A stretch of 64,000 nt of DNA from Parcubacteria group bacterium Gr01-1014_8 (GCA_007376385.1 VMGC01000002.1:32001-96000), one strand, 5' to 3'; counted from the stretch's first letter, positions 2,067 to 63,142 are shown. Notes: a model not told the origin generated them from the sequence alone. A program made the numbers and translations.

Positions 2067-2149
2067 ATACTTCTTTCGGGCACGTGATTTTCCTGCTAGA
2101 AAATCACTCAAATCCTCGCCCGTCGGCTGCGGGGTCCCTCCAGAAGTAT
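2067..2149 (+). repeat. Conserved structured element downstream of a gene, copy 1 of 3 (outer stem ATACTTCT/AGAAGTAT, CCGGGCAC-like box CGGGCAC, inner hairpin, then CTGCGGGGTCCC box)
   Basis: Alignable with copies at 26511-26626 and 57700-57783; both stems covary between copies. Confidence 0.7.
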
Positions 2150-4251: not shown

Positions 4252-4746
4252 TTATCTGCTTCTCACTTTCAACTTCGTCTGCCTCTTCTTGTTTATTTTT
4301 GGCAATCGGATCATCAAGATCCCGTGCTTTTCTGATGCCTCAGCAAGCTCTACATCTACCTCCTCTGGCAAGAGAATGGTTCGTGAAAATGAGCCCCAGT
4401 AAAGCTCTCGTTGGAAATAGTTGTCCTCCTCAACCTCACGCTCGTCTTCTCGGGTGCCGCTGATGGTAAGCATCTCGCGGGTTAGGGAGATATCAATGGA
4501 TGTAGGCTGCACTCCGGCAACAAGAGCCTTTACCACTATGGCATCCGGCGTTTGATACACATCTACTGCCAACTCACCCCCTTCCTCCGCCTCTCCTAAG
4601 TCGCCTTGGTCGCCAGTAGTGACGTGGGCGTGGCGCTGAGAGCCGCTGCCAGTGAACTTTACATGTTCTGCCTGCGGGTCATCAAAATAGTCATCGTATT
4701 GGTCACCTGCGCCCGTTAGTCTCGCGAAAAATGAGGGTTTTTTCAT
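4252..4746 (-). CDS. Hsp20/alpha-crystallin family small heat-shock protein
   Basis: Alpha-crystallin domain signature (AVDVYQTPDAIVVKALVAGV...ISL...LTISG...GSFSRTILLP...GILMIRLPK). Confidence 0.8.
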   Translation of the reverse strand: MKKPSFFARLTGAGDQYDDYFDDPQAEHVKFTGSGSQRHAHVTTGDQGDLGEAEEGGELAVDVYQTPDAIVVKALVAGVQPTSIDISLTREMLTISGTREDEREVEEDNYFQRELYWGSFSRTILLPEEVDVELAEASEKHGILMIRLPKINKKRQTKLKVRSR

Positions 4747-4764: not shown

Positions 4765-5460
4765 CTAATTTCTTCTCCAGCGAGGTTTGATACGTTTTAC
4801 GAACTCAATGCCTCCCAACACAACAATCACACCTGCCCATACTATAGCAAACGTTTGAAGCAGGGACTCTTCCGGAGCGTTCAGTATAAGAAAATTGAAG
4901 CCGCTGTGCAAAAGAGATGCGAGGATAACTCCGGCGGCTACGTACCATGCATGGATTTTGTGCGGTTTGTAGAACGAGAAGGCAAGGGCGAGCCCGACGA
5001 CGGCAGAAGAGAGCACGTGAAGCAATGTAGCCCCGACAAATCGCAAATTTCCGGTCATGATGGTCTCGATAGGGGTATTCCCCGCGAGCGGACTCATCAG
5101 AAAAAGGGTATTTTCAAGCGCGGCAAAACCGAGCGCGACAGCAACCATATAGATTACAGGGTCAATCGGCTCATCATCTTCGTGCCGCCAGAGGACCGCG
5201 ATACGCGCCGCGACATATTTCATCACTTCTTCGATGACAGACCACGCTGTAAAAATAGCCGTCGTGCTGACGAGAAAGGGTGCAACGAACTTTTGGAGCG
5301 GAATGACGACACCGACTGTTATCATTCCTGCGAAAAAAGCGAGGGCAATGAGCCGGCGAGGTTCTGGATGAGAATCTTCCCGCCGCCAGAACCAGAGCCA
5401 TGCAAGGGCGGGGAAGAGCCCTCCTGCTATCGCCGCGAGAAACGGATAAAACTCTGACAT
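4765..5460 (-). CDS. PrsW-family intramembrane metalloprotease
   Basis: Multi-TM protein with the EEVMKY, FAALEN and HSGFN motifs characteristic of PrsW. Confidence 0.7.
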   Translation of the reverse strand: MSEFYPFLAAIAGGLFPALAWLWFWRREDSHPEPRRLIALAFFAGMITVGVVIPLQKFVAPFLVSTTAIFTAWSVIEEVMKYVAARIAVLWRHEDDEPIDPVIYMVAVALGFAALENTLFLMSPLAGNTPIETIMTGNLRFVGATLLHVLSSAVVGLALAFSFYKPHKIHAWYVAAGVILASLLHSGFNFLILNAPEESLLQTFAIVWAGVIVVLGGIEFVKRIKPRWRRN

Positions 5461-6016: not shown

Positions 6017-8133
6017 GGCCACTTTGCGACCATGAGGAGTGGTTCGTCCTTGTGCGGCATCTTTTGCCAGATAGCTTCCGTCACGAACGGCATGAACGGG
6101 TGGAGCAGTTTGAGAGAAGTTACAAGCAGCTCGTAGAGCAATCGTTGGCGGGACTGCCTCTCTGTGGGGTCTTCGCTTTTGAGAATGGATTTCGATTCTT
6201 CGATGACTTCGCTCGCGAAGCGATTCCAAAGGAAATGATACAGGTTTTCAGCTGCCAAATAGAATCGATATTTATCTATACTCTCTGTCGTGTCTGCTAT
6301 CACGTACGACATTTCATTAATGAGATCTGCGTCGTAGGTCGTGAATTCTGCCTTCAGGAAATCTGCTGATGCATCTGTATTCTCAAGGACAAAGCGCGCA
6401 ACATTCCAGAGTTTATTCGAAAAGAGTTTATACGCCTTTATCTTTTGTTCGGAGAGGGCCATGTCCATGCCCGGTGTGTTGCCGACAAGGAGCGCCATGC
6501 GCAGTGCGTCGGTCCCAAATACTCTTGTAACTTCCAGGGGGTTGATAACGTTGCCTTTGCTCTTGCTCATTTTCTGTTTCTGGGCATCGCGCACAAGTCC
6601 GTGCAAAAAGACATCCCGGAAGGGAACTTCACCGGTTCGATACAGGCCAAGCATTATCATGCGCATCACCCAAAAGAACAGGATGTCATAACCTGTTTCC
6701 ATGACTGACGTCGGATAGTAGGTTTTGAAGTCCGGCGAGTCAGGATAGCCAAGTGTGGCAAACGGCCACTGTCCTGACGAGAACCATGTGTCGAAGGTGT
6801 CGGGATCCTGTACCCATCCTTCGCCTGGGGATTCCGCTTGAATTTTTATCTCGTCGTCTTTGAACCATGCGGGTATTGGTATGCCCCAGACTATCTGCCG
6901 CGAAATATTCCAATCGCGGAGCCCTTCGAGCCAGTGGAAGAATATCTTTCTGTACTGTTCACTGACGAACGTGATGCGGCCGTCTTCAACTGCCTTGCCT
7001 GCCATATCAGCGAGAGGCTTTATCTTTACGAACCACTGCGGCATGACACGAGGCTCGAGGATGTCGTGCTCGCTTTTGTAATTGACAAGGACGTTGTGCG
7101 TGTACTTTTCATCGACTTTCACGAGCATACCTTTCTCTTCAAGGTCGCGAGCAACGGCTGCACGAGCTTCAAGTATTTTCATGCCCGCATATTTTCCGCA
7201 TTTTTCATTGAGACGCCCAAATTTGTCGATGACTTCGACAACAGGCAAACCATGTCGCTGTGCCACCGCGAAGTCATTTGGGTCATGTGCCGGCGTGATC
7301 TTGACAACGCCCGTACCGAATGCTTGGTCGACGTATTCATCCGCGATGACCTTGAGCTTCACGGTGCCCGTGAGACCCTCGAATTCGATCTCCTTGCCGA
7401 CCCATTTTTTATATCGTTCATCATTCGGATTTACTGCGACGGCTGTATCGCCGAATTTTGTCTCTGGTCTCACGGTCGCGAGTACGAAGGGCCCGTATTT
7501 CAGGTAGTACAGCGGGTCATTTCTCTCGACCACCTTAGTTTCGAGATCGGAAAGCGATGTCTGGTATTTGGTGCTCCAATGAACGGGACGCGAGCCCCGC
7601 ACGACGAGTCCGTCGTTGAACATCTTTTTGAATGTGCCGTAGACGGTAGATACAATTTTCGGGTCGAGTGTAAAGGTATTGCGGCTCCAATCGCACGAAG
7701 CGCCAAGCTCACGCAGCTGTCCTTCCATGAATTTTTTGTTCTCAAGCGTGAAGGCAAGCGTTTCTTTGTAGAATTCATCTCGCGGCATTTTGAAACGCGA
7801 ACGGCCCTCTTTTTCAAGTTTTTTCTCGAATACGATCTGGGTCTCGAATCCGGCATGGTCGCCTCCCGGCAGCCAGAGGGTCTTGTATCCCCGCATTCGT
7901 TTGTAGCGTATAAGAAGGTCTTGGAGGGTTACGAAAAGCGCGTGGCCAACATGAAGAGAGCCGTTGGCGTTCGGCGGCGGCATGATAATGCAGAATGGCT
8001 CCTTGTGTTCTTCGGGAAGGTTATCTGGATTAAAGTAGCCGCTTTGTTCCCATAAGGAATAGATGCCCGGCTCAGTGTCCGCCGGATCGTACGGTTTGAG
8101 GAATTCTTCTGGTGCGCTGCCTCGATTCTCCAC
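6010..8133 (-). CDS. valS: Valine--tRNA ligase, compact form (707 aa, no C-terminal coiled coil)
   Basis: PPPNANGSLHVGHA (HIGH), KMSKSKGN (KMSKS), TFDTWFSS; class I editing-type synthetase architecture. Confidence 0.85.
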   Translation of the reverse strand: MENRGSAPEEFLKPYDPADTEPGIYSLWEQSGYFNPDNLPEEHKEPFCIIMPPPNANGSLHVGHALFVTLQDLLIRYKRMRGYKTLWLPGGDHAGFETQIVFEKKLEKEGRSRFKMPRDEFYKETLAFTLENKKFMEGQLRELGASCDWSRNTFTLDPKIVSTVYGTFKKMFNDGLVVRGSRPVHWSTKYQTSLSDLETKVVERNDPLYYLKYGPFVLATVRPETKFGDTAVAVNPNDERYKKWVGKEIEFEGLTGTVKLKVIADEYVDQAFGTGVVKITPAHDPNDFAVAQRHGLPVVEVIDKFGRLNEKCGKYAGMKILEARAAVARDLEEKGMLVKVDEKYTHNVLVNYKSEHDILEPRVMPQWFVKIKPLADMAGKAVEDGRITFVSEQYRKIFFHWLEGLRDWNISRQIVWGIPIPAWFKDDEIKIQAESPGEGWVQDPDTFDTWFSSGQWPFATLGYPDSPDFKTYYPTSVMETGYDILFFWVMRMIMLGLYRTGEVPFRDVFLHGLVRDAQKQKMSKSKGNVINPLEVTRVFGTDALRMALLVGNTPGMDMALSEQKIKAYKLFSNKLWNVARFVLENTDASADFLKAEFTTYDADLINEMSYVIADTTESIDKYRFYLAAENLYHFLWNRFASEVIEESKSILKSEDPTERQSRQRLLYELLVTSLKLLHPFMPFVTEAIWQKMPHKDEPLLMVAKWPI

Positions 8134-8249
8134 AGGGCGATGGTAACAGATTCAGAAGAACCCTGCGAGACGCGTCTTCTATTGTGCTATCGCTTTTCGT
8201 CGGCTACTATGCTTCCGTACCGATCATATAAAGTAGTCACATAGATACT

Positions 8250-20230: not shown

Positions 20231-20356
20231 TGTTTGAGGTGGCCGACCTGTTTGGATATGCTGGAACCCTTACCGGGATATCGTTCATGATTCCCCAGGT
20301 ATATCACACGTACAAAACAAAAAGTGTTGAAGACATATCATGGACGCATATGTGAC
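20231..20356 (+). pseudogene. PQ-loop/SemiSWEET-like N-terminal fragment (…GISFMIPQVYHTYKTKSVEDISW…) truncated by a stop after about 41 aa
   Basis: PQ(V)xxxxKxKSxxxIS signature; the frame ends at a TGA that overlaps the next fragment. Confidence 0.45.
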
Positions 20357-20543
20357 GCCTACGTTCCGAGGCAGGGGGATTTTTACGTCATTACATTCCA
20401 GGGCAGAGGAGTATCTTCTCCGTGCCGAGCCCATAAAGCTCATTAGGATCACTGTTCTGTCAAACAATGCAGAGGCTGTGCATGCTTACAAAAAGGCTGG
20501 ATATGAGCCAGAAGAGCTCATCATGGTAAAAAAAGTGGTGTAG
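20340..20543 (+). pseudogene. GNAT acetyltransferase C-terminal fragment (RGRGIFTSL...YKKAGY)
   Basis: 67-aa ORF with GNAT motif A/B only; no N-terminal half in frame. Confidence 0.45.
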
Positions 20544-20633
20544 GCGGCTATCCAAGGGGGGTTGCACACAAAAGGCATAAGGGATGGTACTATAAGGGCA
20601 TAGCAAACAATTAATCAGATAACTAATTCACGT

Positions 20634-20885
20634 ATGGCGAAATCGAATTCAGCATTTATGAAGCCGAAACAGTTGAGTCCAGAGTTGGAAGCTGTGGTTG
20701 GAAAAGGACCAATGCCTCAATCCGAGGTTGTTAAGCAGATGTGGGTATACATCAAGAAGCACGATCTCCAGAACCCAAAGAATAAGAGGAACATCTTGGC
20801 AGACGACAAGCTTAAGGCGATCTTCGGAAAGAACGAAGTCACGATGTTCGAGATGAGCGGGCTCGTCTTCAAACACCTCTCTTAG
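20634..20885 (+). CDS. SWIB/MDM2 domain protein, 83 aa
   Basis: PELEAVVGKGPMPQSEVVKQMWVYIKKHDLQNPKNKRNILADDKLKAIFGK matches the bacterial SWIB signature. Confidence 0.8.
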   Translation: MAKSNSAFMKPKQLSPELEAVVGKGPMPQSEVVKQMWVYIKKHDLQNPKNKRNILADDKLKAIFGKNEVTMFEMSGLVFKHLS

Positions 20886-20933
20886 AAGTCAGTTTTGAAA
20901 AAATGAAAGACACGCTATCATAGCGCCTCAGCT

Positions 20934-25912: not shown

Positions 25913-26020
25913 ATACCCCGTGAGATATGTATAAAAAAGGCATCTTAACTAGCTGATTATTCATTTGAATTTATAGATTGTGATGAGAAATTTGGAGTGT
26001 ACCTATCTCATGGGGTATAC
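25913..26020 (+). promoter_or_regulatory. Inverted box pair ATACCCCGTGAGATA ... TATCTCATGGGGTATAC around a 76-nt spacer, about 25 nt upstream of the 26045 start
   Basis: Family member; arms pair G:U as RNA. Confidence 0.55.
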
Positions 26021-26044
26021 TTCTCACGACAGGCGCTTGTAACC

Positions 26045-26503
26045 ATGAAGTCGATAATTTCGATCGTAGCAGTGTTGCTGATGGCAGGAGTCGCGTACAT
26101 TATATGGCCGCAGTTCGCGAATGCACCGCAAATAGATGATCCTAGCGCGACAGAACGGGTCTCGGAACAGAAGAATGTACCGGTGGATGAGCAATTTGCA
26201 ACACTTATTACGTACACAGATGGGGGGTATAGCCCGCAAACGGTTTCAATAAAAAAAGGTCAGACAGTCAGGTTCGTTAATAACGCAGAACGCCAGGATA
26301 CATGGCCTGCGTCCGCCATACATCCCACCCATTCGATCTATCCGCAAAAAACGGACAGCGATTGTCTAGGGAGTTCATTCGATCCATGCCACGGATTAAA
26401 GCCGGGAGAGTTCTGGGAGTTTACGTTCAATGAAGTCGGGGAGTGGGGTTTCCATGACCACTTGCATCCGTCGAAGTTCGGGAAGATCCTCGTTACTGAA
26501 TAG
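26045..26503 (+). CDS. Secreted cupredoxin-like small protein (possible copper-binding beta-sandwich)
   Basis: Signal/anchor MKSIISIVAVLLMAGVAYI, then beta-rich region with His/Cys/His/Met-type ligand candidates (HPTHSIYP, CHGLKPGEFWEF, HDHLHP). Confidence 0.4.
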   Translation: MKSIISIVAVLLMAGVAYIIWPQFANAPQIDDPSATERVSEQKNVPVDEQFATLITYTDGGYSPQTVSIKKGQTVRFVNNAERQDTWPASAIHPTHSIYPQKTDSDCLGSSFDPCHGLKPGEFWEFTFNEVGEWGFHDHLHPSKFGKILVTE

Positions 26504-26510
26504 AGAGAGA

Positions 26511-26626
26511 TACTCGGCGGGGGTATGTGTTTTTCCGGGCACCGATCTTTCTTGGAAGAAAGATCCTCGAGTCCTCGGTCGTCACCTGCGGGGTCCCTGC
26601 GAAACACATACCCCCGTGCTCGCCGG
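26511..26626 (+). repeat. Conserved structured element downstream of a gene, copy 2 of 3 (outer stem GGGGGTATGTGTTT/AAACACATACCCCC, CCGGGCAC, inner hairpin GATCTTTCTT/AAGAAAGATC, CTGCGGGGTCCC)
   Basis: See the copies at 2067-2149 and 57700-57783; sits between convergent genes. Confidence 0.7.
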
Positions 26627-26651
26627 AAGCTAGAATGCAAAGATCGAATAC

Positions 26652-27578
26652 CTATTTTTGGGCGTGCAATGTAAGATAGATATCCTCTAGAGCTTTCACG
26701 GCGTCTCCCGCAGCTATGTTATTTTGATGGAAAAGGCCGTCGGTCGAATCGCCAGCTGCCCAAATACCTGGCGTTGAGGTGCGCTGCGTGCGGGGGTCAA
26801 CCTTAATACGCGCCCACTCGTTCAATTCCACAACTCCTTTAGCAAGATCTGTCGACGGCACCATGCCGATCTCCACGAAAATGCCAGCGGCAGGGATCTC
26901 CGATGTTTTTCCCGTTGCCGTGTTCTTAACGACAATGCTTTGCACGAACTGCCCTCCTTTTATTTCAATGGGCGCGGTATTGGTAAGCGCTTTCATATTC
27001 GGATGTTTGAGGACAGCTTCTACCGTCGAGGCATCTGCTTTCGAGAAATCTGGGCCGCGATGCAGCAGCGTGACTGATTTTGCATACGCAAGAAGCTGCG
27101 CTGCCGTCTCGAACCCAGCGTTGCCCCCGCCGACAACGATAGTATCTTGGTCTGCGAAAAGAGGTCCGTCGCATGATGCGCAATACGTGAGCCCTTTATT
27201 CTCGTACTCCTTTGCACCAGGGATCTCGAGTTGTTTTCGAAAGCCGCCTGTTGCGATGAGAATTGCCCGCGTATCGTATGCGCTTTTATTTGTTTTTACT
27301 GAAAAGCCTTTCTCGGTTTTTTCTATTTTTTCAACTCGTTCGCCGATGTGTATATCCAGGCCCTGGCTCGCATACGCCCTCAAGTGGCCTTCGAACGCCT
27401 TCGCGAGGTCTTGCCCTGTTATTTTCTCAGTGCCTATCCAGTTCTGTATCTCATTTGAATCAAAACTCTGTCCTCCTATCTTCTCTGCAACGAGAACTGT
27501 CTTGAGGCGTTTTCTCGCGGCGTATACGCCGGCAGATACTCCTGCTGGCCCGCCTCCGATTATGACTAGATCGTACAT
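26652..27578 (-). CDS. trxB: Thioredoxin-disulfide reductase
   Basis: GGGPAG FAD motif, redox-active CASCDG and the NADPH-binding GGGNAG. Confidence 0.9.
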   Translation of the reverse strand: MYDLVIIGGGPAGVSAGVYAARKRLKTVLVAEKIGGQSFDSNEIQNWIGTEKITGQDLAKAFEGHLRAYASQGLDIHIGERVEKIEKTEKGFSVKTNKSAYDTRAILIATGGFRKQLEIPGAKEYENKGLTYCASCDGPLFADQDTIVVGGGNAGFETAAQLLAYAKSVTLLHRGPDFSKADASTVEAVLKHPNMKALTNTAPIEIKGGQFVQSIVVKNTATGKTSEIPAAGIFVEIGMVPSTDLAKGVVELNEWARIKVDPRTQRTSTPGIWAAGDSTDGLFHQNNIAAGDAVKALEDIYLTLHAQK

Positions 27579-33416: not shown

Positions 33417-33699
33417 AAAGTGACTTCAGGCGGGTACATCGCGCGCATTCTACTACTTAACAGTAATTGACACCAAGCGGGAGGGGTGTTGTATGTGGAA
33501 AACAATATATTTTTTCTCGCACGGATATTTTTTTGCTAAAAAAGTTCGCTCGGTATTCCTCTCGCTGAACCCGAGCGCATATTTCCGGCGATATGTGCCC
33601 TTATGCTTCAACGCGCAACTCCTCACTTCATTCGGAGACCCAGGCTTGCGCGTTTCCAGAGATTCAGCGAGAGGAATACCCGCTTGAATGAAAAATATT

Positions 33700-33761
33700 T
33701 ATTGGCGAGCGTTGCGAGTGACGCGAAAATGTACTCATTTTCATGTCCGAGCCGGGGAGCC
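33700..33761 (+). repeat. Hairpin/CCGAGC-box family copy D (GCGAGCGTTGCGAG, GAAAATG-N4-CATTTTC, ATGTCCGAGCCGGGGAGCC)
   Basis: Family member between lepB and pth. Confidence 0.5.
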
Positions 33762-46074: not shown

Positions 46075-46377
46075 ATGGAAGCTGGAATGATGGTGCTGCA
46101 GAGGTTCAAGGAATATATCCTTGACCCGACTATTTATCTTATCCTGACAGCAGGACTCCTTTTGTTTATTTACGGTCTTGTGCTCTTTATCTACAAGATG
46201 CGAGAGGGCAGCGACTATAAGGAGGGCCTGTCGCACATGCTCTGGGGCATAATCGGCATGTTTATTATGGTATCCGTGTACGGCATTATCGCGCTCATCA
46301 TAAACACGATCGGCGCTGACCCGACTCAACCTGATCTAAGCAGGATACCTGAAGCAAATCCCGGATTCTTTAAGTAA
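46075..46377 (+). CDS. Pilin-like paralog 5 (no cleavable signal; two TM helices)
   Basis: LFIYGLVLFIYKMREG...MLWGIIGMFIMVSVYGII, related to paralogs 2 and 4. Confidence 0.5.
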   Translation: MEAGMMVLQRFKEYILDPTIYLILTAGLLLFIYGLVLFIYKMREGSDYKEGLSHMLWGIIGMFIMVSVYGIIALIINTIGADPTQPDLSRIPEANPGFFK

Positions 46378-46852
46378 TTGTCGAAATGACAGTCGGCCAT
46401 CGCCGCCTGTACTCCAGATAAACGAGTACTATTATCGCGCAGTCATATGCGGAAAGTGCGATAAGCCATAGTGAATGCGTCTGTGTGTACAGATACAGCT
46501 GAAATAGTGCAAAAAGAGCGAGGAGTACTGACGCGATGGGGAACATTATTTTTTTGTGCATTAAGAGCCCCGATGCGAGAATCAGATTTATCAGTGCACT
46601 AATGAATAAATACAGAGCGGCAAATTCTTTTCCCGCTTGCGTGACATGCGACACGTTTGAAAGCAGCACGTTGGCTAATACATCATTCGGGTCCTCTACT
46701 AACTCCTTTGAGACGACGCTTATTGCGAGGGCAGAAAGGGTTGCGCCGCTTGTGAAAAAGATGATTACCGCGCCGATCAATTCGGCAATTGCGTGAAGTC
46801 CTTTGAGGATGACAGCAACCTCGAAGAAGCGATGCAGAAATGACCGTTGCAT
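46370..46852 (-). CDS. Hypothetical four-TM membrane protein
   Basis: Start at the internal MQRSFLH; the upstream ORF extension would overlap tRNA-Leu. Confidence 0.45.
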   Translation of the reverse strand: MQRSFLHRFFEVAVILKGLHAIAELIGAVIIFFTSGATLSALAISVVSKELVEDPNDVLANVLLSNVSHVTQAGKEFAALYLFISALINLILASGLLMHKKIMFPIASVLLALFALFQLYLYTQTHSLWLIALSAYDCAIIVLVYLEYRRRWPTVISTIT

Positions 46853-46854
46853 AG

Positions 46855-47825: not shown

Positions 47826-47830
47826 AAGGC

Positions 47831-48934
47831 TTACGTCGTATCAATTATTCGCGGAAGTTGTTCAGGAATATGCGCCAGAACTTCATAGGGAATAGTACCT
47901 ATCATTTTCGCTATGGATTCGACTGAGTTCTTATCATCGGGGTTGCGGCTCATAAGGATCACGTCGTCGCCGATCGCTGTCTCGGGAGCATCTGTTATAT
48001 CAACGCCGATCATATTCATGCTTACTCGCCCGACAATGGGGCAGGTCTTATCTTTGGTAGTTACGAATCCTGTATTCGAAAGCCTGCGGTCGATCCCTTC
48101 GAAATATCCGCCGGGGATGGTGGCGATGACCATAGGGTGTTCTGCTGTAAAGGTAGCGTTGTAGCCGACTGATTCGCCCGCGTTAATTCGCCGAATTGAA
48201 GCCACGACCGAGCGCATCTCAAGAACTGGTTTCAGATCCATCCTTTTATTATTTGACACATCGAATCCATACAGACCGATTCCGAGCCGAGCCATATTTG
48301 TGTTTGCTGCTGTTATAGATGCAAAGCCAGTCGTAGCGGCTACATGGCGGTATCGAATGCTTGAGAACGCGCGGTCAAAGAAATCCGATGCATCACTCCA
48401 ATTTTTCAATTGTGTATTGGTAAACGAAGGGTTTTCGCCGTCTGCATCGGCAATGTGCGTGCAGATACCTTCAACTGTAAGAAGCGGCTGAATTTTTATG
48501 AGCGCGATCGCTTCATTAAAATCGCTCTCGGCGATTCCTTGCCGATGCATGCCTGTATCGATCTTTATATGAACTCTGAGCGGAGTTTTGATGATTTTGG
48601 AGAGCTGTCTCAGCTCCTCAATGTCTGTTATAGCGAGCGTAGTATCAGAAGGGATACTGGATACGACGTCCGATGGCCTCACATACCCTACTATCAATAT
48701 ATTTTTCTTGCTGCGTGCTTTTCGCAATGCGACAGCCTCCGAAAGGGAATTTACGACCAGAAAAGGAATTGTTTCTGATTCTAAAATGTTCGAGACTTCG
48801 GGAAGTCCGTGTCCGTAGGCATTGCTTTTGACAACAGGAGCGATGTCGATGTTCGGATATACACGCTGGTATTCTTGCAGATTGTGCAGAAGATTCTCCT
48901 TTGAAATGCCGATTTGTATTAAGGAAGTATCCAT
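47831..48934 (-). CDS. alr: Alanine racemase
   Basis: PVVKSNAYGHG PLP-lysine motif; start at the internal MDTSLIQ. Confidence 0.8.
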   Translation of the reverse strand: MDTSLIQIGISKENLLHNLQEYQRVYPNIDIAPVVKSNAYGHGLPEVSNILESETIPFLVVNSLSEAVALRKARSKKNILIVGYVRPSDVVSSIPSDTTLAITDIEELRQLSKIIKTPLRVHIKIDTGMHRQGIAESDFNEAIALIKIQPLLTVEGICTHIADADGENPSFTNTQLKNWSDASDFFDRAFSSIRYRHVAATTGFASITAANTNMARLGIGLYGFDVSNNKRMDLKPVLEMRSVVASIRRINAGESVGYNATFTAEHPMVIATIPGGYFEGIDRRLSNTGFVTTKDKTCPIVGRVSMNMIGVDITDAPETAIGDDVILMSRNPDDKNSVESIAKMIGTIPYEVLAHIPEQLPRIIDTT

Positions 48935-48936
48935 TG

Positions 48937-54992: not shown

Positions 54993-57680
54993 ATGACACC
55001 ATTCAACAATTTCACCACCAAAGCAAAGGAGGCCATTCAAAGAGCTCACCAGCTTGCCGTCGAACGCGGCCACAACCAGGTTTCGACCCTTCATCTTCTG
55101 GCCGCTCTCATGATGCAAGAGGAAAGCATGGTTATCCCGATGCTGGACCAGCTTGATATTGATACGGCGCATCTTACCGACTCTATACTGGAACAGATAG
55201 AAGGAGGGACCGGGACGACCGTCTCGCCATCGTTCCAGCTGTATCTCACACCGGAGTTGGTGCGAGTGTTCGAAGGCGCGCCGCGCATCGCTGCAAGTTT
55301 CAACGACCAATTCGTTTCTCCTGAGCATTTGCTTCTTGGCGTTGCCGAGCATCCGGGCCCTGCTGTAGACCTTCTCCAGCGATTTCGTATCGATAGAGCC
55401 GCACTGGCTCGCATTCTTGCAGATATCAAAGAAGGCAAGATACGCGACGCAGAAGAGCCGAAGAAGCCGCGCGCGCTCACTCGCTTCGCTCGTTCGCTCA
55501 CCGAGCGCGCACGCGAAAACAAACTTGACCCTGTCATCGGGCGCGATACTGAAATAATCCGCGTCATTCAAATTCTTTCCCGCCGCACAAAGAACAATCC
55601 AATCCTCATAGGCGAAGCTGGAGTCGGAAAAACCGCCGTCGCAGAAGGTCTTGCCCAGCGCATGGCCTCCGGCGACGTGCCGGAATCGCTTCGCGGGAAG
55701 GAGCTCGTCCAGCTCGACCTCGGGCTTCTCGTTGCAGGTACGAAATACCGCGGAGAATTCGAGGAACGATTGAAGGCTGTCATGAAGGAAGTTGAGAAGG
55801 CGGAAGGGAAGATAATTCTATTTGTTGACGAGCTGCATACGCTGATAGGTGCAGGGGCAGCGGACGGCGCACTTGATGCGTCGAATATGCTCAAGCCGGC
55901 TCTCGCTCGTGGCGAGATACGCGTTGTCGGCGCAACTACTCTCAAGGAATACCAGCGCCACATCGAACACGATGCAGCGTTCACTCGCCGCTTTCAGCCT
56001 GTCTATGTGAACGAGCCCTCGCTCGACGATACAGTCGCAATTTTACGCGGTCTCAAGGAACGTTATGAGCTTTTTCACGGTGTCCACATTACAGACGATG
56101 CCATCATTTCTGCGGCACAACTTTCCAGCCGCTATATCACAGAGAGATTTCTGCCGGACAAAGCCATAGACCTCATAGACGAAGCCGCTTCCGCGCTCCG
56201 ACTCTCGCTTGAGAACAAGCCGCCAGCCCTCGAAGAGGCGCATCGCAAAGTAACCCGTCTCGAGATTGAAAAAGAGGCGCTCAAGAAAGAATCCGACGCA
56301 AGCGAAGGCAAAGCTCGCACGCGCGTCAAATCCATCGAGAAAGAGATAGCAGACCTTCGCGACGGAACGCGCGAGCTCGAAATGAAATGGAAGAACGAGA
56401 AAGAAACGTTGACCGAAATTGGTCGCCTCAAGAAAGAATTGGAAGCGGCTCGGCTTGAAGCAGAAGGTGCCGAAGCCAGAAGCGACCTTACGAAAACCGC
56501 TGAAATACGGTACGGTCGCATTCCGAATCTCGAAAGGGACCTCGACACAGCGTCGAAAAAACTTCGCAAATTGCAATCCACCAGGCGCGTACTCCGCGAA
56601 GACATCACGTCAGAAGATATTGCGGCAGTAGTCTCGCGCTGGACGGGCGTGCCGGTCTCTCGAATGCTCGAGGAAGAAGCAGAAAAACTCTCTCGCATGG
56701 AAGCCGACATAAAGAAACGCATCATCGGTCAAGACGAGGCAGTCCAGAAAGTTGCGGATGCCATCAAGCGAAGCCGCGCAGGGATTGCAGACCCGAACAG
56801 ACCAGTTGGCTCGTTTCTATTCCTTGGTCCAACCGGAGTTGGAAAAACAGAGCTCACCAAAGCGCTTGCAGAATTTCTTTTCAACAGCGAAAAGGCGCTT
56901 ATACGCGTAGACATGTCCGAGTACATGGAAAAGCACTCTGTCTCCAAAATGATTGGTTCGCCTCCAGGATATGTCGGACACGACGAAGGTGGGGGACTCA
57001 CGGAATTGGTTCGTCATCGTCCGTACTCTGTCATTCTCTTCGACGAGATCGAAAAAGCGCATCCGGAAGTATTCAACGTGCTTCTGCAGGTCTTGGACAA
57101 CGGCAGGCTCACAGATTCAAAGGGGCGCACCGTGAACTTCAAGAATACTGTCATCATCATGACGTCGAACATCGGCAGCGAGCACATAGACAAAATGTCG
57201 AATCTTGGCTTCAACCAGGGTCCGGCGGGTTCGGCACACGAACAGTACGAGCAGGTGAAAGTAAAAGTAATGAGCGCGCTCAAGGATTTCTTCCGACCGG
57301 AATTCTTGAACCGTCTCGATGAGATAGTGCTCTTCAACATCCTCTCGCCTGAATCGGTGCAGACAATAGTGCGCATTCAGGTAGACCAAGTCGTAAAGAG
57401 GCTCGAAGAAAAACACATCAAGCTCACGTTCTCGGATGCAGTTATCGAACACCTCGCAAAGGAGGGCTACAACCCGCAATACGGTGCGCGTCCGCTGAAA
57501 CGACTTATCCAGAGCAAAGTTCTAACCGCGGTTGCAAACATGATGGTCGCGAGGGGAGTCCTCGAAGGCGGCTCCGTCCATGTTGATATGAAAGATGGCG
57601 AATTCTCGTTCGATGTACGAAAGAGCGCTGAACGTGTACGAGGAGCAAGAGCGAGGGCGAAATCGGCGAGTGCTGCATAA
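54993..57680 (+). CDS. clpB: ATP-dependent chaperone ClpB
   Basis: Two AAA+ modules (GEAGVGKT; GPTGVGKT) separated by a long coiled-coil M-domain. Confidence 0.9.
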
Positions 57681-57699
57681 AAAGGGTCGCTCGAAGGTA

Positions 57700-57783
57700 G
57701 TGCTTCCTCCGGGCACGGATTTTTCTTACTAGAAAAATCCTCAAAATCCTCGGTCGTCACCTGCGGGGTCCCCCCAGAAGCAC
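57700..57783 (+). repeat. Conserved structured element downstream of a gene, copy 3 of 3 (outer stem GTGCTTC/GAAGCAC, CCGGGCAC, inner hairpin GGATTTTTCTT/AAGAAAAATCC, CTGCGGGGTCCC)
   Basis: See the copies at 2067-2149 and 26511-26626; sits between convergent clpB and 57816..58667. Confidence 0.7.
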
Positions 57784-57815
57784 AACCTCACTCGCTGGAG
57801 ACGGGGGAGCGTTCG

Positions 57816-58667
57816 CTACTTGTCTGTAGCCTTAGGTTTTTTCATCTTGAGTAAAATTTCTTCCACAGTATCCTTAAATTTGGCAGGCAGTTGATCCAAT
57901 ACTTCTCGAACTTCAGCCATAGTTTCTGCCTTCATTCCAGGGAACACCTCCTCTTTCAAGGTTTCGAGGCATCTTGGAATTCTCCACTCACCCGGGGTCC
58001 CCATTGTTTCCTTTATGGTCCGTAAAGGAATTAATATTGCGCCCATTCGTCCTTCCTTAGAATACATATATGTTTCCAGTTCACGAATTCGCATTTCAAG
58101 ATCGGTAATTGTGAGTTGTTGTCGATTTTGAGTCGCGCCTTGCGAGGCAACATCCTTCTGTTGTGATACAGAAGCGGTGGTTAACTTGGAAATTTTCTCA
58201 TCCACTGCACGTATTTCTTCAATCATTTCACCTTTTTCTTTTGACAATGCCAATGCAGTAGTTGCGGACGATTTAGCCAAAATATCCTCTTCCGATTTCT
58301 TTATTAGAAGCTTTGTGTCTTCGCGAATTTCGTTGGATAGAGCTCCAATCTCTGCCCTCAATGCGGTCACGGAAGACGTTACTTGGGATTCAAGTGCTTG
58401 GCGTGCATCTACGATACTTGACGACTGTTTTTCCAATTCTTTCTCTATGGGTCGTAAACTCATCAAATAAAATATCCCACCAAGAGCCAATACAACGGTA
58501 ATTGCAAATCCAATATGCTCAAGGGACGCTGTGTTTAATTGGTGAATCAAATCAAGCTGCCATCTTACAAGGTCAGATCCGGAAATTGGTGTAACTGCAG
58601 ATATTGTCGTTGTTGCCATACGGAATGACACTACGCCTGCCGTCAGTTCCTTGCAAGCGACTAGCAT
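57816..58667 (-). CDS. Hypothetical membrane-anchored coiled-coil protein
   Basis: One TM helix followed by heptad-rich sequence. Confidence 0.45.
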   Translation of the reverse strand: MLVACKELTAGVVSFRMATTTISAVTPISGSDLVRWQLDLIHQLNTASLEHIGFAITVVLALGGIFYLMSLRPIEKELEKQSSSIVDARQALESQVTSSVTALRAEIGALSNEIREDTKLLIKKSEEDILAKSSATTALALSKEKGEMIEEIRAVDEKISKLTTASVSQQKDVASQGATQNRQQLTITDLEMRIRELETYMYSKEGRMGAILIPLRTIKETMGTPGEWRIPRCLETLKEEVFPGMKAETMAEVREVLDQLPAKFKDTVEEILLKMKKPKATDK

Positions 58668-61164: not shown

Positions 61165-61269
61165 GTGTTGAATTATACGCGATGGCGCGCGCCAGAGGTG
61201 GCCGGAAAGCAATACGTTACCGGAACGCTGATCGAAAACACCCTTGACGGGTGTTTTTCAAACTATCTG

Positions 61270-61294
61270 TGCGCCGGACTGGATTCGAACCAGC
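61270..61294 (-). pseudogene. Inverted partial copy of the tRNA-Tyr 3-prime end (GGTTCGAATCCAGTCCGGCGCA)
   Basis: 20 of 22 nt identical to the 3-prime end of tRNA-Tyr at 62043-62064; no 5-prime half present. Confidence 0.55.
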
Positions 61295-61364
61295 GAAGAC
61301 CGAAGCCAACGCGTCTGTGCACAAGTCGCCTTGACCATAACCAGGCGTTATTTATTCTTTATGT

Positions 61365-62012
61365 ATGGTACGCATCCTAGCAATACCGAGAACGAAATGG
61401 AACGGAATAATAGGTCAGTACAAATCAGGGCTTTCGATGCAACAAGTTGCCGACAAGAATGGCGTATCGATTGATGTTATTACTTACATACTTCGTAAGT
61501 CTAAAGTGCCGCGGCGTTCATTTATTGACGCAAATAGAATTGCGTTTGAATCAAAGAAACCCTCTTTTGCGCTACGCAATCAGAACTCGGATTCATCAAA
61601 GGAGTTAGATTTGATTGGAGCGATGCTCTATTGGGCAGAGGGATATAAGAGAAATACGGCTAGCGGAATAGATTTTGCGAATAGCGATCCTGATATGGCC
61701 TTATTATTCTGGCGATTCCTGAAACATCGTTACAAACTCGACCTCAAGAGGCTCTATTTCTCTGTTTATCACTATGACGATCAACACTTATCCGCTCTTG
61801 TGAAGTTTTGGAAGCATAAGTTGGGTATCTCTGAGGAACTATTTCGACACTCATATATGAAGGGAAATTCGAATCCGAATGCGCGCAAGTTGCCATACGG
61901 TGTTTTACACATTCGCTATATGGATAAAAAGCTTTTGAGAGACGTGCTAACTTTGATAGAATCGTATAAACTACGGTTCTGCGTCGGTGGCGGAGTGGTC
62001 AATCGCAATTGA
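61365..62012 (+). CDS. HTH protein with a C-terminal LAGLIDADG-like (homing-endonuclease-like) domain
   Basis: N-terminal LSMQQVADKNGVSIDVITYIL helix-turn-helix; LIGAMLYWAEGYK resembles a single LAGLIDADG motif; the 3-prime end overlaps the tRNA-Tyr 5-prime end. Confidence 0.45.
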   Translation: MVRILAIPRTKWNGIIGQYKSGLSMQQVADKNGVSIDVITYILRKSKVPRRSFIDANRIAFESKKPSFALRNQNSDSSKELDLIGAMLYWAEGYKRNTASGIDFANSDPDMALLFWRFLKHRYKLDLKRLYFSVYHYDDQHLSALVKFWKHKLGISEELFRHSYMKGNSNPNARKLPYGVLHIRYMDKKLLRDVLTLIESYKLRFCVGGGVVNRN

Positions 62013-62064: not shown

Positions 62065-62115
62065 CAAGTAAGATGGTCAAATTGGGGAGCTTTTTCGCGT
62101 GCTACAATATTCCAG

Positions 62116-62499
62116 ATGAGAGCAGTGCGTTTTGCGCTCGCGTACCTAACTCCCGTTTCTTTAGCGCTTCTGCCGCTCGTTTCAAACGCTGCTTTGCCGG
62201 ATTCCATCGTTCCGTGTAAGGGGCTCGACTGCACAGTGTGCAGCTTGGCGACACTTGCTCAAAACTTGCTGAATGCGGGGATTTTCATGGCTATCTTCAT
62301 ATCCGCGCTTCTCTTTGCCTATGCAGGGTGGCTGTATCTCACCAACGAAGCTATCGGTCAGCAGCAGAAGGCAAAAGGCATGTTTCTGAATGTGGTAGTT
62401 GGACTCGTTCTCATTCTCGGCGCATGGCTCATCGTTGATACTTTGATGAAGGTTATGCTCGGAGGCAGCTACATGCCGTGGAATAGCGTTTGTTCATAG
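62116..62499 (+). CDS. Pilin-like paralog 6 (homolog of 44141..44488)
   Basis: Signal LPLVSNA|AL, helices FAYAGWLYLT and VVGLVLILGAWLIVD; parallels VYAGFLFV and ILILGAWVF in paralog 1. Confidence 0.55.
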   Translation: MRAVRFALAYLTPVSLALLPLVSNAALPDSIVPCKGLDCTVCSLATLAQNLLNAGIFMAIFISALLFAYAGWLYLTNEAIGQQQKAKGMFLNVVVGLVLILGAWLIVDTLMKVMLGGSYMPWNSVCS

Positions 62500-62521
62500 G
62501 CCCTGCACGTCTTCGTATTGA

Positions 62522-62608
62522 CCCCATTAGAGAAGGATCATTTCCTTCCAGCTTGTTCTGCGTATTCGCTCTTCAAAAATTGATCGAAATAGGACCAAAG
62601 CATTCTCT
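62522..62608 (+). promoter_or_regulatory. Inverted box pair variant ATTGACCCCATTAGAGAA ... CTCTAACGGGGTTGAC, about 50 nt upstream of rpmG
   Basis: Diverged family member. Confidence 0.45.
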
Positions 62609-62658
62609 AACGGGGTTGACCTAGAGCCGCTATTTGGCTATAGTGCGCCCGAATCGAT

Positions 62659-62817
62659 ATGTCACAAGATCAACTCATAAAACTCGCGTGTTCGAAGTGC
62701 GCACGCATCAACTACTGGTCCCGCAAGAACAGAAAGCTTGTTACGCGCAAGATAGAAATGAAGAAGTACTGCAAGTGGTGTAAGGCGCACACCATGCATA
62801 AGGAATCTAAAAAGTAA
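62659..62817 (+). CDS. rpmG: 50S ribosomal protein L33 (52 aa, zinc-ribbon type)
   Basis: Hand-translated MSQDQLIKLACSKCARINYWSRKNRKLVTRKIEMKKYCKWCKAHTMHKESKK with CxxC...CxxC. Confidence 0.8.
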   Translation: MSQDQLIKLACSKCARINYWSRKNRKLVTRKIEMKKYCKWCKAHTMHKESKK

Positions 62818-62820
62818 GCC

Positions 62821-63142
62821 TTGCCCACTTGCAGTGAGAAGGGGCCGGGAAGCGGGAGCGACCAATCATTCTTAGCGGTACTCCGCTTTAGAATGATGAA
62901 GTACTCCTGTGGTGTTTCCCGTGGAGGAAGGCAGCGTGTGAGTTTTGGACGAGCATTGGAAAACCGTGGGCGACCAATTTTTCTTGCCGGTACTCCGGCT
63001 TAGAAAAATGGAGGTACCCTTGAGGTGTGACCAAGAAAATAACGAGGAACGAGTATATTTTCTGAAGTACTCTTGCGGTGTTTCCAAAGTTTTCTTGTGT
63101 TGCCGCAAGCATACGCCGCACAAAGAAGCGAAGAAATAGAAG
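62821..63142 (+). repeat. Two to three degenerate tandem repeats derived from the rpmG 3-prime half (GAAGTACTCCTGTGGTGTTTCC / GGAGGTACCCTTGAGGTGTGACC / GAAGTACTCTTGCGGTGTTTCC ... TGCCGCAAGCATACGCCGCACAAAGAAGCGAAGAAATAG)
   Basis: Nucleotide and peptide similarity to the rpmG tail (KKYCKWCKAHTMHKESKK versus KYSCGVS...CRKHTPHKEAKK). Confidence 0.55.

Follow-up and report, generated by a model that had tools for sequence, protein, structure and literature searches.

Among the repeats described in bacterial genomes, repetitive extragenic palindromes (REPs), with their BIME and REPIN arrangements, come closest to the element reported here, which was found in three copies in a 64,000-nt stretch of DNA from Parcubacteria group bacterium Gr01-1014_8 (the window, to whose full length the window coordinates refer). 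REPs are multi-copy and strictly extragenic, often lie between convergent genes and form single-strand hairpins with a tetranucleotide at the stem foot, which is GTAG in REPs and CGAG here. They also recur at matching intergenic sites of related species, where their sequence is species-specific, and can act secondarily as stabilisers of mRNA 3' ends. However, REPs are simple palindromes of 20–40 nt and REPINs are inverted pairs of REPs, whereas the present unit, about 85–115 nt long across the family, folds into a three-way junction with two unrelated inner hairpins, has flanking tetranucleotides that are direct and not inverted, and has an outer stem of unconserved sequence. Proteobacterial REPs are mobilised by RAYT, a Y1 HUH transposase, whereas the host here is a bacterium of the candidate phyla radiation (CPR) with a tiny genome, and no RAYT (Y1 transposase) gene was found among about 40 open reading frames (ORFs) of the window or in the gene tables of the loci fetched from relatives. 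Tentatively, and with somewhat less than even confidence, the copies are read as a REP-like, structure-defined family of dispersed intergenic repeats that would be recognised by a protein and spread or homogenised at the DNA level.

Further likenesses exist to miniature inverted-repeat transposable elements (MITEs) such as Correia/NEMIS, ERIC/IRU, RUP and BOX, which are dispersed non-coding repeats of about 100 nt with long terminal complementarity, are patchy between strains, and are co-transcribed with their neighbours and in some cases processed by RNase III. Integron attC sites likewise conserve structure over sequence, with an outer stem, an unpaired spacer, an inner stem with an extrahelical base and a variable tip that is branched in some cases; they are located directly behind ORFs and function as one DNA strand in folded form. 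IS200/IS605-derived PATEs carry distinct subterminal hairpins, one per end, insert 3' of a particular tetranucleotide and go with a TnpA/TnpB relative in the genome. Here CGAG, a constant tetranucleotide, abuts both ends of a single nested fold, and no TnpA was seen by Pfam among the same ORFs of the window. The element departs from REP/BIME and structured MITEs in its three-way junction with a sequence-free outer stem, its direct flanking tetranucleotides and its CPR host.

Genomes of CPR bacteria (Patescibacteria) are among the most compact known, and to our knowledge there are few reports of non-coding elements from them. A covarying structure in several copies is unexpected baggage in such genomes and would imply either a dedicated protein partner with a route of DNA shuffling or a clade-specific RNA device at gene boundaries.

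Structure of the element and its covariation

A sequence-only reading of the window had described three copies with one architecture, and their locations, single orientation, boxes and inner hairpin were found as claimed. Its boundaries were right as locations and needed adjustment as spans. On the window minus strand, on which the family sequence is read throughout, the whole elements with the full closing stem P1 were placed by covariance-model score and fold at 2061–2155 (copy 1, P1 GUGGCCAUACUUCU / AGAAGUAUGGUCAU), 26518–26616 (copy 2, 15-bp P1 CGGGGGUAUGUGUUU / AAACACAUACCCCCG) and 57695–57788 (copy 3, P1 AGGUUGUGCUUC / GAAGCACUACCU with one U.U mismatch); the earlier span of copy 2, 26511–26626, takes in flank. 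Plain alignment of the three copies shows two conserved boxes, CGGGCAC and TCCTCG-NN-CGTC-NN-CTGCGGGGTCCC, and between them a hairpin with arms that vary without loss of complementarity. Both strands of every window copy fold far better than their dinucleotide shuffles (z −3.6 to −5.4). Against a covariance model derived from them, the copies scored 97–105 bits (E about 1e-26 to 1e-28), and 95–103 bits were obtained for copy 1; no further full copy was found in the 64 kb.

The fold consists of four helices, with the closing stem P1, P2 and the hairpins P3 and P4 on a three-way junction. On the minus strand the layout is 5'-CGAG(Y)(R), P1, a purine-rich internal loop (GGA/GAA or similar), P2, P3, a linker, P4, the return of P2 and P1, and CGAG(Y)(R)-3'. 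P1 is 8–23 bp long with a variable outer part, and its inner 5–7 bp are common within subfamilies. P2 pairs GGGAC with GU-G-CCC around a single bulged G and is invariant in window-type copies; in copy 1 its 3' strand GUGCCC lies at 2078–2083 and its partner GGGAC at 2134–2138. P3 has the form CC-GCA-[3 bp]-GACG-[3 bp]-GA-GG, that is two closing pairs, a purine-rich 3x2 internal loop and the loop GACG (in copy 1 at 2114–2132, CC-GCA-GCC-GACG-GGC-GA-GG), and is followed by the linker A(U/C)U(U/C)GAG. P4 is A/U-rich, with 9–10 bp and a loop of AGCA, AGUA or UCCA; in copy 1 it has 10 bp and the loop AGCA, at 2084–2107. The hairpin loops GACG and AGCA are conserved, as are the purine-rich internal loops. 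A K-turn in P3 was considered and rejected, as the bulged strand lacks the required GA after the 3-nt bulge.

Compensatory changes were found throughout this structure. The differences between the window copies are almost all compensatory, and the stems of intact copies are nearly perfect. In the four closest copies 97% of the cells are paired and 14 of 29 pairs are doubly changed, which none of 500 shuffles equalled. With nine copies from five genomes 93% of the cells are paired, 26 of 29 pairs carry double changes, and the covariation score is 0.78 compared with 0.24 for shuffles and at most 0.2 for slid controls, in an alignment that was fitted to the model and hence favours the structure. 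An alignment independent of the model (MAFFT with RNAalifold) recovers P4 only, with compensation in nine of its ten pairs; P1 is lost there because its length varies. Single stems can be followed as well. The P4 of window copy 2 differs from that of L097b, a copy in a Kaiserbacteria genome introduced below, by six double compensatory changes, the P2 of L097b covaries from GGG/CCC to AAC/GUU, and the 3-bp stem of P3 covaries between GCC-GACG-GGC and GGT-GACG-ACC. The compensatory stem changes noticed earlier are thus real and extend beyond the two stems then claimed, for instance to the small P3 hairpin. The fold is considered established and, by its compensatory changes, under selection.

The structured strand is probably the window minus strand, opposite to the plus strand assumed before. 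The minus sense folds better in eight of nine copies, with a summed minimum free energy (MFE) of −423 versus −383 kcal/mol and, for copy 1, −44.9 versus −36.0. Its internal loops are rich in purines and include a tandem G.A-type loop in P3 (L097a, GA/GA; window type, GCA/GA); loops of this kind are probably more usual in structured RNA. In copy 1 the topmost P4 pair reads U.G in the minus sense and C.A in the plus sense. A hand count of G.U pairs on the shared structure gave about eight places in the minus sense and two in the other, which is suggestive only (P1 and P4 of copy 1, P1 twice and P3 of the Hainich copy L002, with L097c as an exception); counts in free MFE folds, 9 and 8, did not discriminate the strands. 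The minus strand is also favoured for the active form, be it RNA or single-stranded DNA.

The tetranucleotide CGAG occurs 27 times on the minus-sense strand versus 6.2 expected in 1117 nt (elements with 10-nt flanks; Poisson P about 6e-10, a value that overstates independence because the copies are related), and its complement CTCG six times. Sites lie at both feet of the element, in the linker and in P3 on its 3' side. The flanking CGAG(Y)(R) is the same in nearly all copies and forms direct repeats, which in copy 1 lie at 2057–2060 (3' foot) and 2157–2160 and are extended to the 7 nt CGAGCGU, in copy 2 at 26513–26516 and 26619–26622, and in copy 3 at 57690–57693 and 57791–57794.

Copies in relatives and turnover between genomes

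A search of the window against Rfam 15 at gathering thresholds returned ten tRNAs only, and permissive scans of copies 1 and 3 and L097a gave chance matches only, of at most 17 bits against thresholds of at least 37. The families covered include twister, hammerhead, HDV-like, pistol, hatchet, Y RNA, HEARO and the IS605-associated RNAs. A likeness to HDV-like or twister ribozymes was considered and had no model support. As nothing relevant was found in the literature on repeats or structured RNAs of CPR/Patescibacteria either, the family appears to be undescribed.

Beyond the window, an exact-pattern scan of 185,579 species genomes gave 27 matches, of which one is a true copy (L002) and 26 are chance, mostly on contigs of about 70% GC (61–74%). 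In a pattern scan of JGI metagenomes 66 of 67 matches were false, and the true one (L063) is on the same Hainich contig as L002; the source genome of the window is in neither collection. Covariance models (R1 to R3) were also searched against loci around TrxB and ClpB homologues; model searches yielded seven further copies or remnants, in four related MAGs of Parcubacteria that are mostly Kaiserbacteria-like. The check proposed with the sequence-only reading, a covariance model built from the copies, thus finds members in related genomes, and the lack of further copies that would have spoken against the element does not apply. Two weak model matches of 11.8–13.9 bits (L083 1801–1869 and L091 1222–1277) on metagenome contigs of low GC (0.37–0.43) share a GC-rich stretch CGGGCACTCCCTTTCCGCGGGGAG...CTGCGGGGTC and are probably unrelated to the family.

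The hosts outside the window are a few related metagenome-assembled genomes (MAGs) of Parcubacteria, mostly annotated as Kaiserbacteria. In the copy from the Hainich groundwater MAG of Patescibacteria (L002), P1 is 23 bp long and new in sequence, and the core is about 90% identical to copy 1 by hand count; its contig has 59% GC versus 49.5% in the window. The TrxB-like protein beside copy 2 matches one of Gr01-1014_8 at 100% identity, and the best matches outside the source organism, in Kaiserbacteria/Paceibacteria, are at most 75% identical; two public contigs with a 100% identical TrxB are also identical across copy 2. The Kaiserbacteria genome GCA_016217965.1 (L097), with TrxB 75% identical, has three copies in 21 kb. 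One (L097b) is diverged and follows directly after trxB in the position and orientation of window copy 2, one lies in the divergent pth/lepB gap (4401–4493), where a conserved promoter of lepB (TTGGTG-17-TATACT) follows about 45 nt downstream of it, and one starts from the ybeY stop codon ahead of ftsA in opposite sense (7319–7411), with a GC-rich P4 CUGGCGU-AGCA-ACGCCAG and a 5-bp P3 in which the GACG loop is kept. L099 has a weaker copy at the pth-lepB site (33–109), and at its trxB site only the 3' part of a copy is left. There, a cassette of a ParE toxin and a small antitoxin (7201–7709) lies between trxB and the element remnant, at a place where the element is intact in L097 and in the window. 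In GCA_021413775.1 (L110), with ClpB 85% identical, two copies were found. Copy 1 of L110 is diverged and runs from the first base past the clpB stop in the orientation of window copy 3, and copy 2 (8282–8360) begins 22 nt after a tRNA-Leu(CAA) gene (8177–8259).

A fourth family site in the window is a decayed remnant in the 524-nt pth-lepB gap (33505–33582, minus strand). Its model score of 11.7–16.3 bits is by itself below significance and is backed by synteny and a shared 12-nt string; it retains a P4-like hairpin UUUUUU-AGCA-AAAAAA and UAUCCGUGCGA, the latter in common with the intact L097 copy at pth-lepB.

At least four subfamilies can be told apart: the window type (copies 1–3 and L002); a type whose P4 has a bulged A, to which L097a, the window remnant and the two copies of L110 belong; subfamily 'b' (L097b, L099a and the L099 remnant); and L097c as a lone member. 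The same locus can hold different subfamilies in different genomes, whereas within one genome the copies share a core. Such a pattern calls for turnover, gene conversion or repeated targeted insertion. Presence is patchy too. After clpB, only L110 among six relatives whose DNA was read has a copy, and none was found at 93, 88, 86, 85 (L111) and 84% ClpB identity. L111 shows the same clpB-terminator-tRNA-Tyr layout as L110 and lacks the element, which makes it an empty site relative to L110. After trxB, a copy or remnant was seen at 75 and 74% identity and none at 72 or 71%. Decayed remnants are present at the window pth-lepB site and the L099 trxB site, and the family density in the window is three to four per 64 kb.

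A further trace of events on the DNA was observed at copy 2 of L110, which is bracketed by a perfect 21-nt direct repeat CGAGTCCCTCTCCCGGCACAA (8241–8261 and 8354–8374). The repeat opens within the tRNA-Leu T-loop and continues to two bases past the 3' end of the gene; the P1 3' strand of this copy is the duplicated tRNA piece. A repeat from the T-loop to the 3' end is reportedly the classic identity block of tRNA-gene integrations (e.g. Williams 2002), and in this respect the site resembles those of tRNA-targeting integrative elements; it differs from them in that the segment between the repeats is a 92-nt non-coding insert without an integrase gene and in that such a tRNA-end duplication was found at one of the about 11 copies only. 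At copy 1 of L110, the P1 5' strand (GGAUUCGAA) equals the T-arm of the neighbouring tRNA-Tyr in reverse complement. Patchy presence, subfamily turnover, remnants and the tRNA-end duplication together point to turnover at the DNA level.

Interpretation of the family and alternative explanations

On the reading as a REP-like repeat, the fold and its CGAG motifs would form the recognition surface for a putative trans-acting protein, and the family would, like REP/BIME or MITE repeats, be propagated, replaced or homogenised as DNA, by mobility or gene conversion. Copies would settle where a compact genome tolerates them, at gene ends and in convergent gaps, and an effect on neighbouring transcripts, for example as a stable 3' hairpin, would be secondary. 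The functional reading proposed earlier stands as far as conserved structure is concerned; it had not considered the patchy presence, the subfamily turnover and the tRNA-end duplication.

Several observations weigh against a spreading repeat. The family is small, with about 11 copies in all from the window, the pattern scans and the fetched loci, and scans of the IMG/VR viral collection gave no true copy. No transposase, integrase, HUH nuclease or reverse transcriptase was found in the window (Pfam, about 40 ORFs) or beside any copy. MITEs have conserved terminal inverted repeats, whereas here the outer P1 varies in sequence and length (8–23 bp) around a conserved inner core. Target duplications of MITEs vary by site, whereas here CGAG(Y)(R) is constant and only one 21-nt repeat is seen; the constant flanking CGAG is therefore a motif and not a random target-site duplication. 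The copies at the trxB and clpB loci keep their orientation across genomes, and this, together with the compensatory differences in the window, is what host-level purifying selection at fixed loci would give. Finally, no clean pair of filled and empty sites with identical flanks was obtained that would show insertion boundaries or a target duplication.

The main rival, possible if on balance rather unlikely, is that the element is a cis-acting RNA selected by the host at transcript ends. It would be transcribed with the neighbouring gene as its 3' untranslated tail, in convergent gaps from either flank, with the long P1 blocking 3'-to-5' exonucleases or marking processing (e.g. by RNase III) and the three-way junction binding a protein. 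The near-perfect stems of intact copies, the persistence at the trxB and clpB loci with orientation preserved and the six double P4 changes between copy 2 and L097b agree with it, and so does gene context in part. In the plus sense, six of the about 11 copies begin 0–16 nt past the stop codon of a co-directional gene; in the opposite sense, a protein gene of like direction precedes four copies (trxB twice, a 283-amino acid (aa) ORF and ybeY) and tRNA-Leu precedes one. Most copies stand at a transcription-unit end in the sense of the terminated gene, in one sense or the other, and copy 1 of L110 is inside the clpB unit, upstream of its terminator. However, orientation to the upstream gene is inconsistent across the family, and two to three loci are in divergent gaps upstream of the lepB promoter, where no transcript end is expected and no gene precedes the pth-lepB copies in either sense. 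The earlier statement that the copies lie immediately after plus-strand genes thus holds in the window and fails as a family rule, given the pth-lepB copies, the opposite sense at ybeY and the tRNA-Leu site. A stabiliser would also be redundant where a canonical terminator hairpin follows, as in L110, where such a terminator lies about 40 nt beyond the element with another hairpin between; there the element is needed neither for termination nor for 3' protection at clpB. Moreover, the closest relatives lack the element at the same gene ends, and the 21-nt tRNA-end duplication and the replacement of subfamilies at fixed loci would be left unexplained.

An unlikely, though more far-reaching, possibility is that the element is the recognition unit of a new CPR mobilisation or recombination system, in which a structure-specific nuclease or recombinase would cut or join it on one strand, next to CGAG, including the CGAG of tRNA T-loops. 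If so, it would move between co-resident Parcubacteria, and its sites would mark the entry of cassettes or islands into minimal genomes.

Stand-alone small RNAs transcribed from the window minus strand, for example protein-sequestering ones with several CGAG/GGA motifs, are improbable. The better fold of the minus sense, with purine-rich internal loops and CGAG four to five times per unit, would suit them, but a promoter scan found no conserved promoter before the copies in either sense and no −35/−10 pair at a fixed upstream distance, and the sole promoter-like match for a minus-sense RNA has its −10 inside P1. No terminator follows any copy, and copy 1 of L110 is shielded from read-in on that strand by a bidirectional terminator. 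The small RNA suggested earlier is accordingly unsupported as a gene of its own, because no conserved promoter precedes the copies.

Still more doubtful is an attC-like or att-like recombination site, one folded DNA strand at which a site-specific recombinase would exchange cassettes or small islands. The architecture loosely recalls attC, copies lie directly after ORFs, the ParE toxin-antitoxin cassette is exactly between trxB and the L099 remnant, the duplication at the L110 tRNA-Leu is att-like, and wherever the element occurs the gene set downstream of clpB is different. Direct reading finds no attC boxes (RYYYAAC/GTTRRRY), as the outer stems read GTGGCCATAC, CGGGGGTAT, AGGTTGTGC and GGCCGTATCC, the flanking CGAG is direct and not inverted, and the neighbours are the core genes divIC, tRNA, trxB, ftsZ, clpB, lepB and ybeY, with no cassette array and no integrase found nearby.

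An ordinary, possibly bidirectional Rho-independent terminator, one of the functions proposed with the sequence-only reading, or an unrecognised self-cleaving ribozyme is very improbable: stable GC-containing hairpins at gene ends and in convergent gaps, with stems that vary by site, recall terminators, and a multi-copy compact junction fold is typical of small ribozymes, but terminator scans and reading of the flanks found no T/U run past P1 on either strand of any copy, the interior is complex and conserved, canonical hairpin-plus-T-run terminators are present in the clade (L110, where one stands alongside the element, L111 and L108), and no ribozyme family in Rfam matched even at E up to 10. 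The terminator scan gave a few matches at copies 2 and 3, which are either small pieces of internal stem or a hairpin with no relation to the element. An insertion of the core into pre-existing terminator hairpins was likewise rejected, as the outer stems are interrelated (GGCCATAC in copy 1 versus GGCCGTATCC in L002) and T runs are missing; GTGTTTC is found in the outer stems of copy 2, L002 and L097b.

As the family is small, well defined and easily modelled, RNA or repeat libraries could take it up to guard against annotation of spurious ORFs, of which 26338–26640 and 57467–57760, running through copies, are examples. It is also a handle for metatranscriptome and strain-polymorphism work in groundwater data.

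Genomic neighbourhood and minor observations

The neighbours named earlier as ftsB-like, cupredoxin-like and clpB genes were confirmed as DivIC/FtsB-like, Cupredoxin_1 and ClpB. Copy 1 lies 9 nt past the stop of the DivIC/FtsB-like gene (+, 1677–2051) and about 30 nt upstream of the −35 of a tRNA promoter at 2187–2216. The other two are between convergent genes, as had been stated: copy 2 between Cupredoxin_1 (+, 25997–26503) and a TrxB-like reductase (−, 26652–27578), and copy 3 between ClpB (+, 54993–57680) and the 283-aa ORF (−, 57816–58667). These convergent gaps, of 148 and 135 nt, are nearly filled by the element, and most others are shorter than 20 nt on a crude ORF map.

Positive GC skew throughout the window suggests a single replichore. 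All four window copies, including the remnant, have one chromosomal orientation, as have the three L097 copies. The two L110 copies, 3.3 kb apart and opposed, break a replication-strand rule for orientation that would fit the window and L097, and the rule was rejected.

The tRNA-Leu(CAA) gene of L110 has both of its ends duplicated (region 8106–8374). Its first 22 nt with two upstream bases recur 69 nt upstream (8106–8129 / 8175–8198), and its last 19 nt with two further bases recur past the element (8241–8261 / 8354–8374). To judge from these repeats, the double duplication looks like repeated integration or excision. In the window, 57688–57706 (flank and 5' P1 strand of copy 3, GCTCGAAGGTAGTGC) closely resembles the last codons of L110 clpB at 4925–4943 (GTGCGAAGGTAGTTGC); this may be coincidental, may reflect a family motif, as TCGAAGG flanks L097b too, or may be left over from the joining of the element to the gene end. 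In L105, a relative without the element, a tyrosine integrase (Phage_integrase) and an HTH_17 excisionase-like gene lie at 14305–15657, 1.6 kb downstream of clpB; gene content in the region downstream of clpB differs in almost every genome fetched.

A promoter-like site of lepB (TTGGTG and TATACT or TAGAAT, 17 nt apart) is conserved together with its leader at L097 4525–4556, L099 146–177 and L095 4103–4134 (corresponding to about 33445–33476 of the window), in the three genomes just downstream of the element site. By the decayed copy in the pth-lepB gap, the minus strand of 33490–33700 forms a perfect stem of about 20 bp (GGUAUUCCUCUCGCUGAA.../...UUCAGCGAGAGGAAUACC) that encloses two hairpins (MFE −71 kcal/mol, z −4.0). 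It has no Rfam match and follows the same plan as the family, a closing stem with a junction, with no detectable sequence relation to it.

Five non-coding gaps of 525–1111 nt on the crude ORF map (47826–48936, 61213–61980, 62065–62871, 20308–20933 and 46330–46854) are large for a compact genome and have no Rfam match; they may hide small ORFs or other elements. The ten tRNA genes in the 64 kb (Rfam, 48–75 bits) include several that are divergent from or convergent with protein genes, with almost no spacer.

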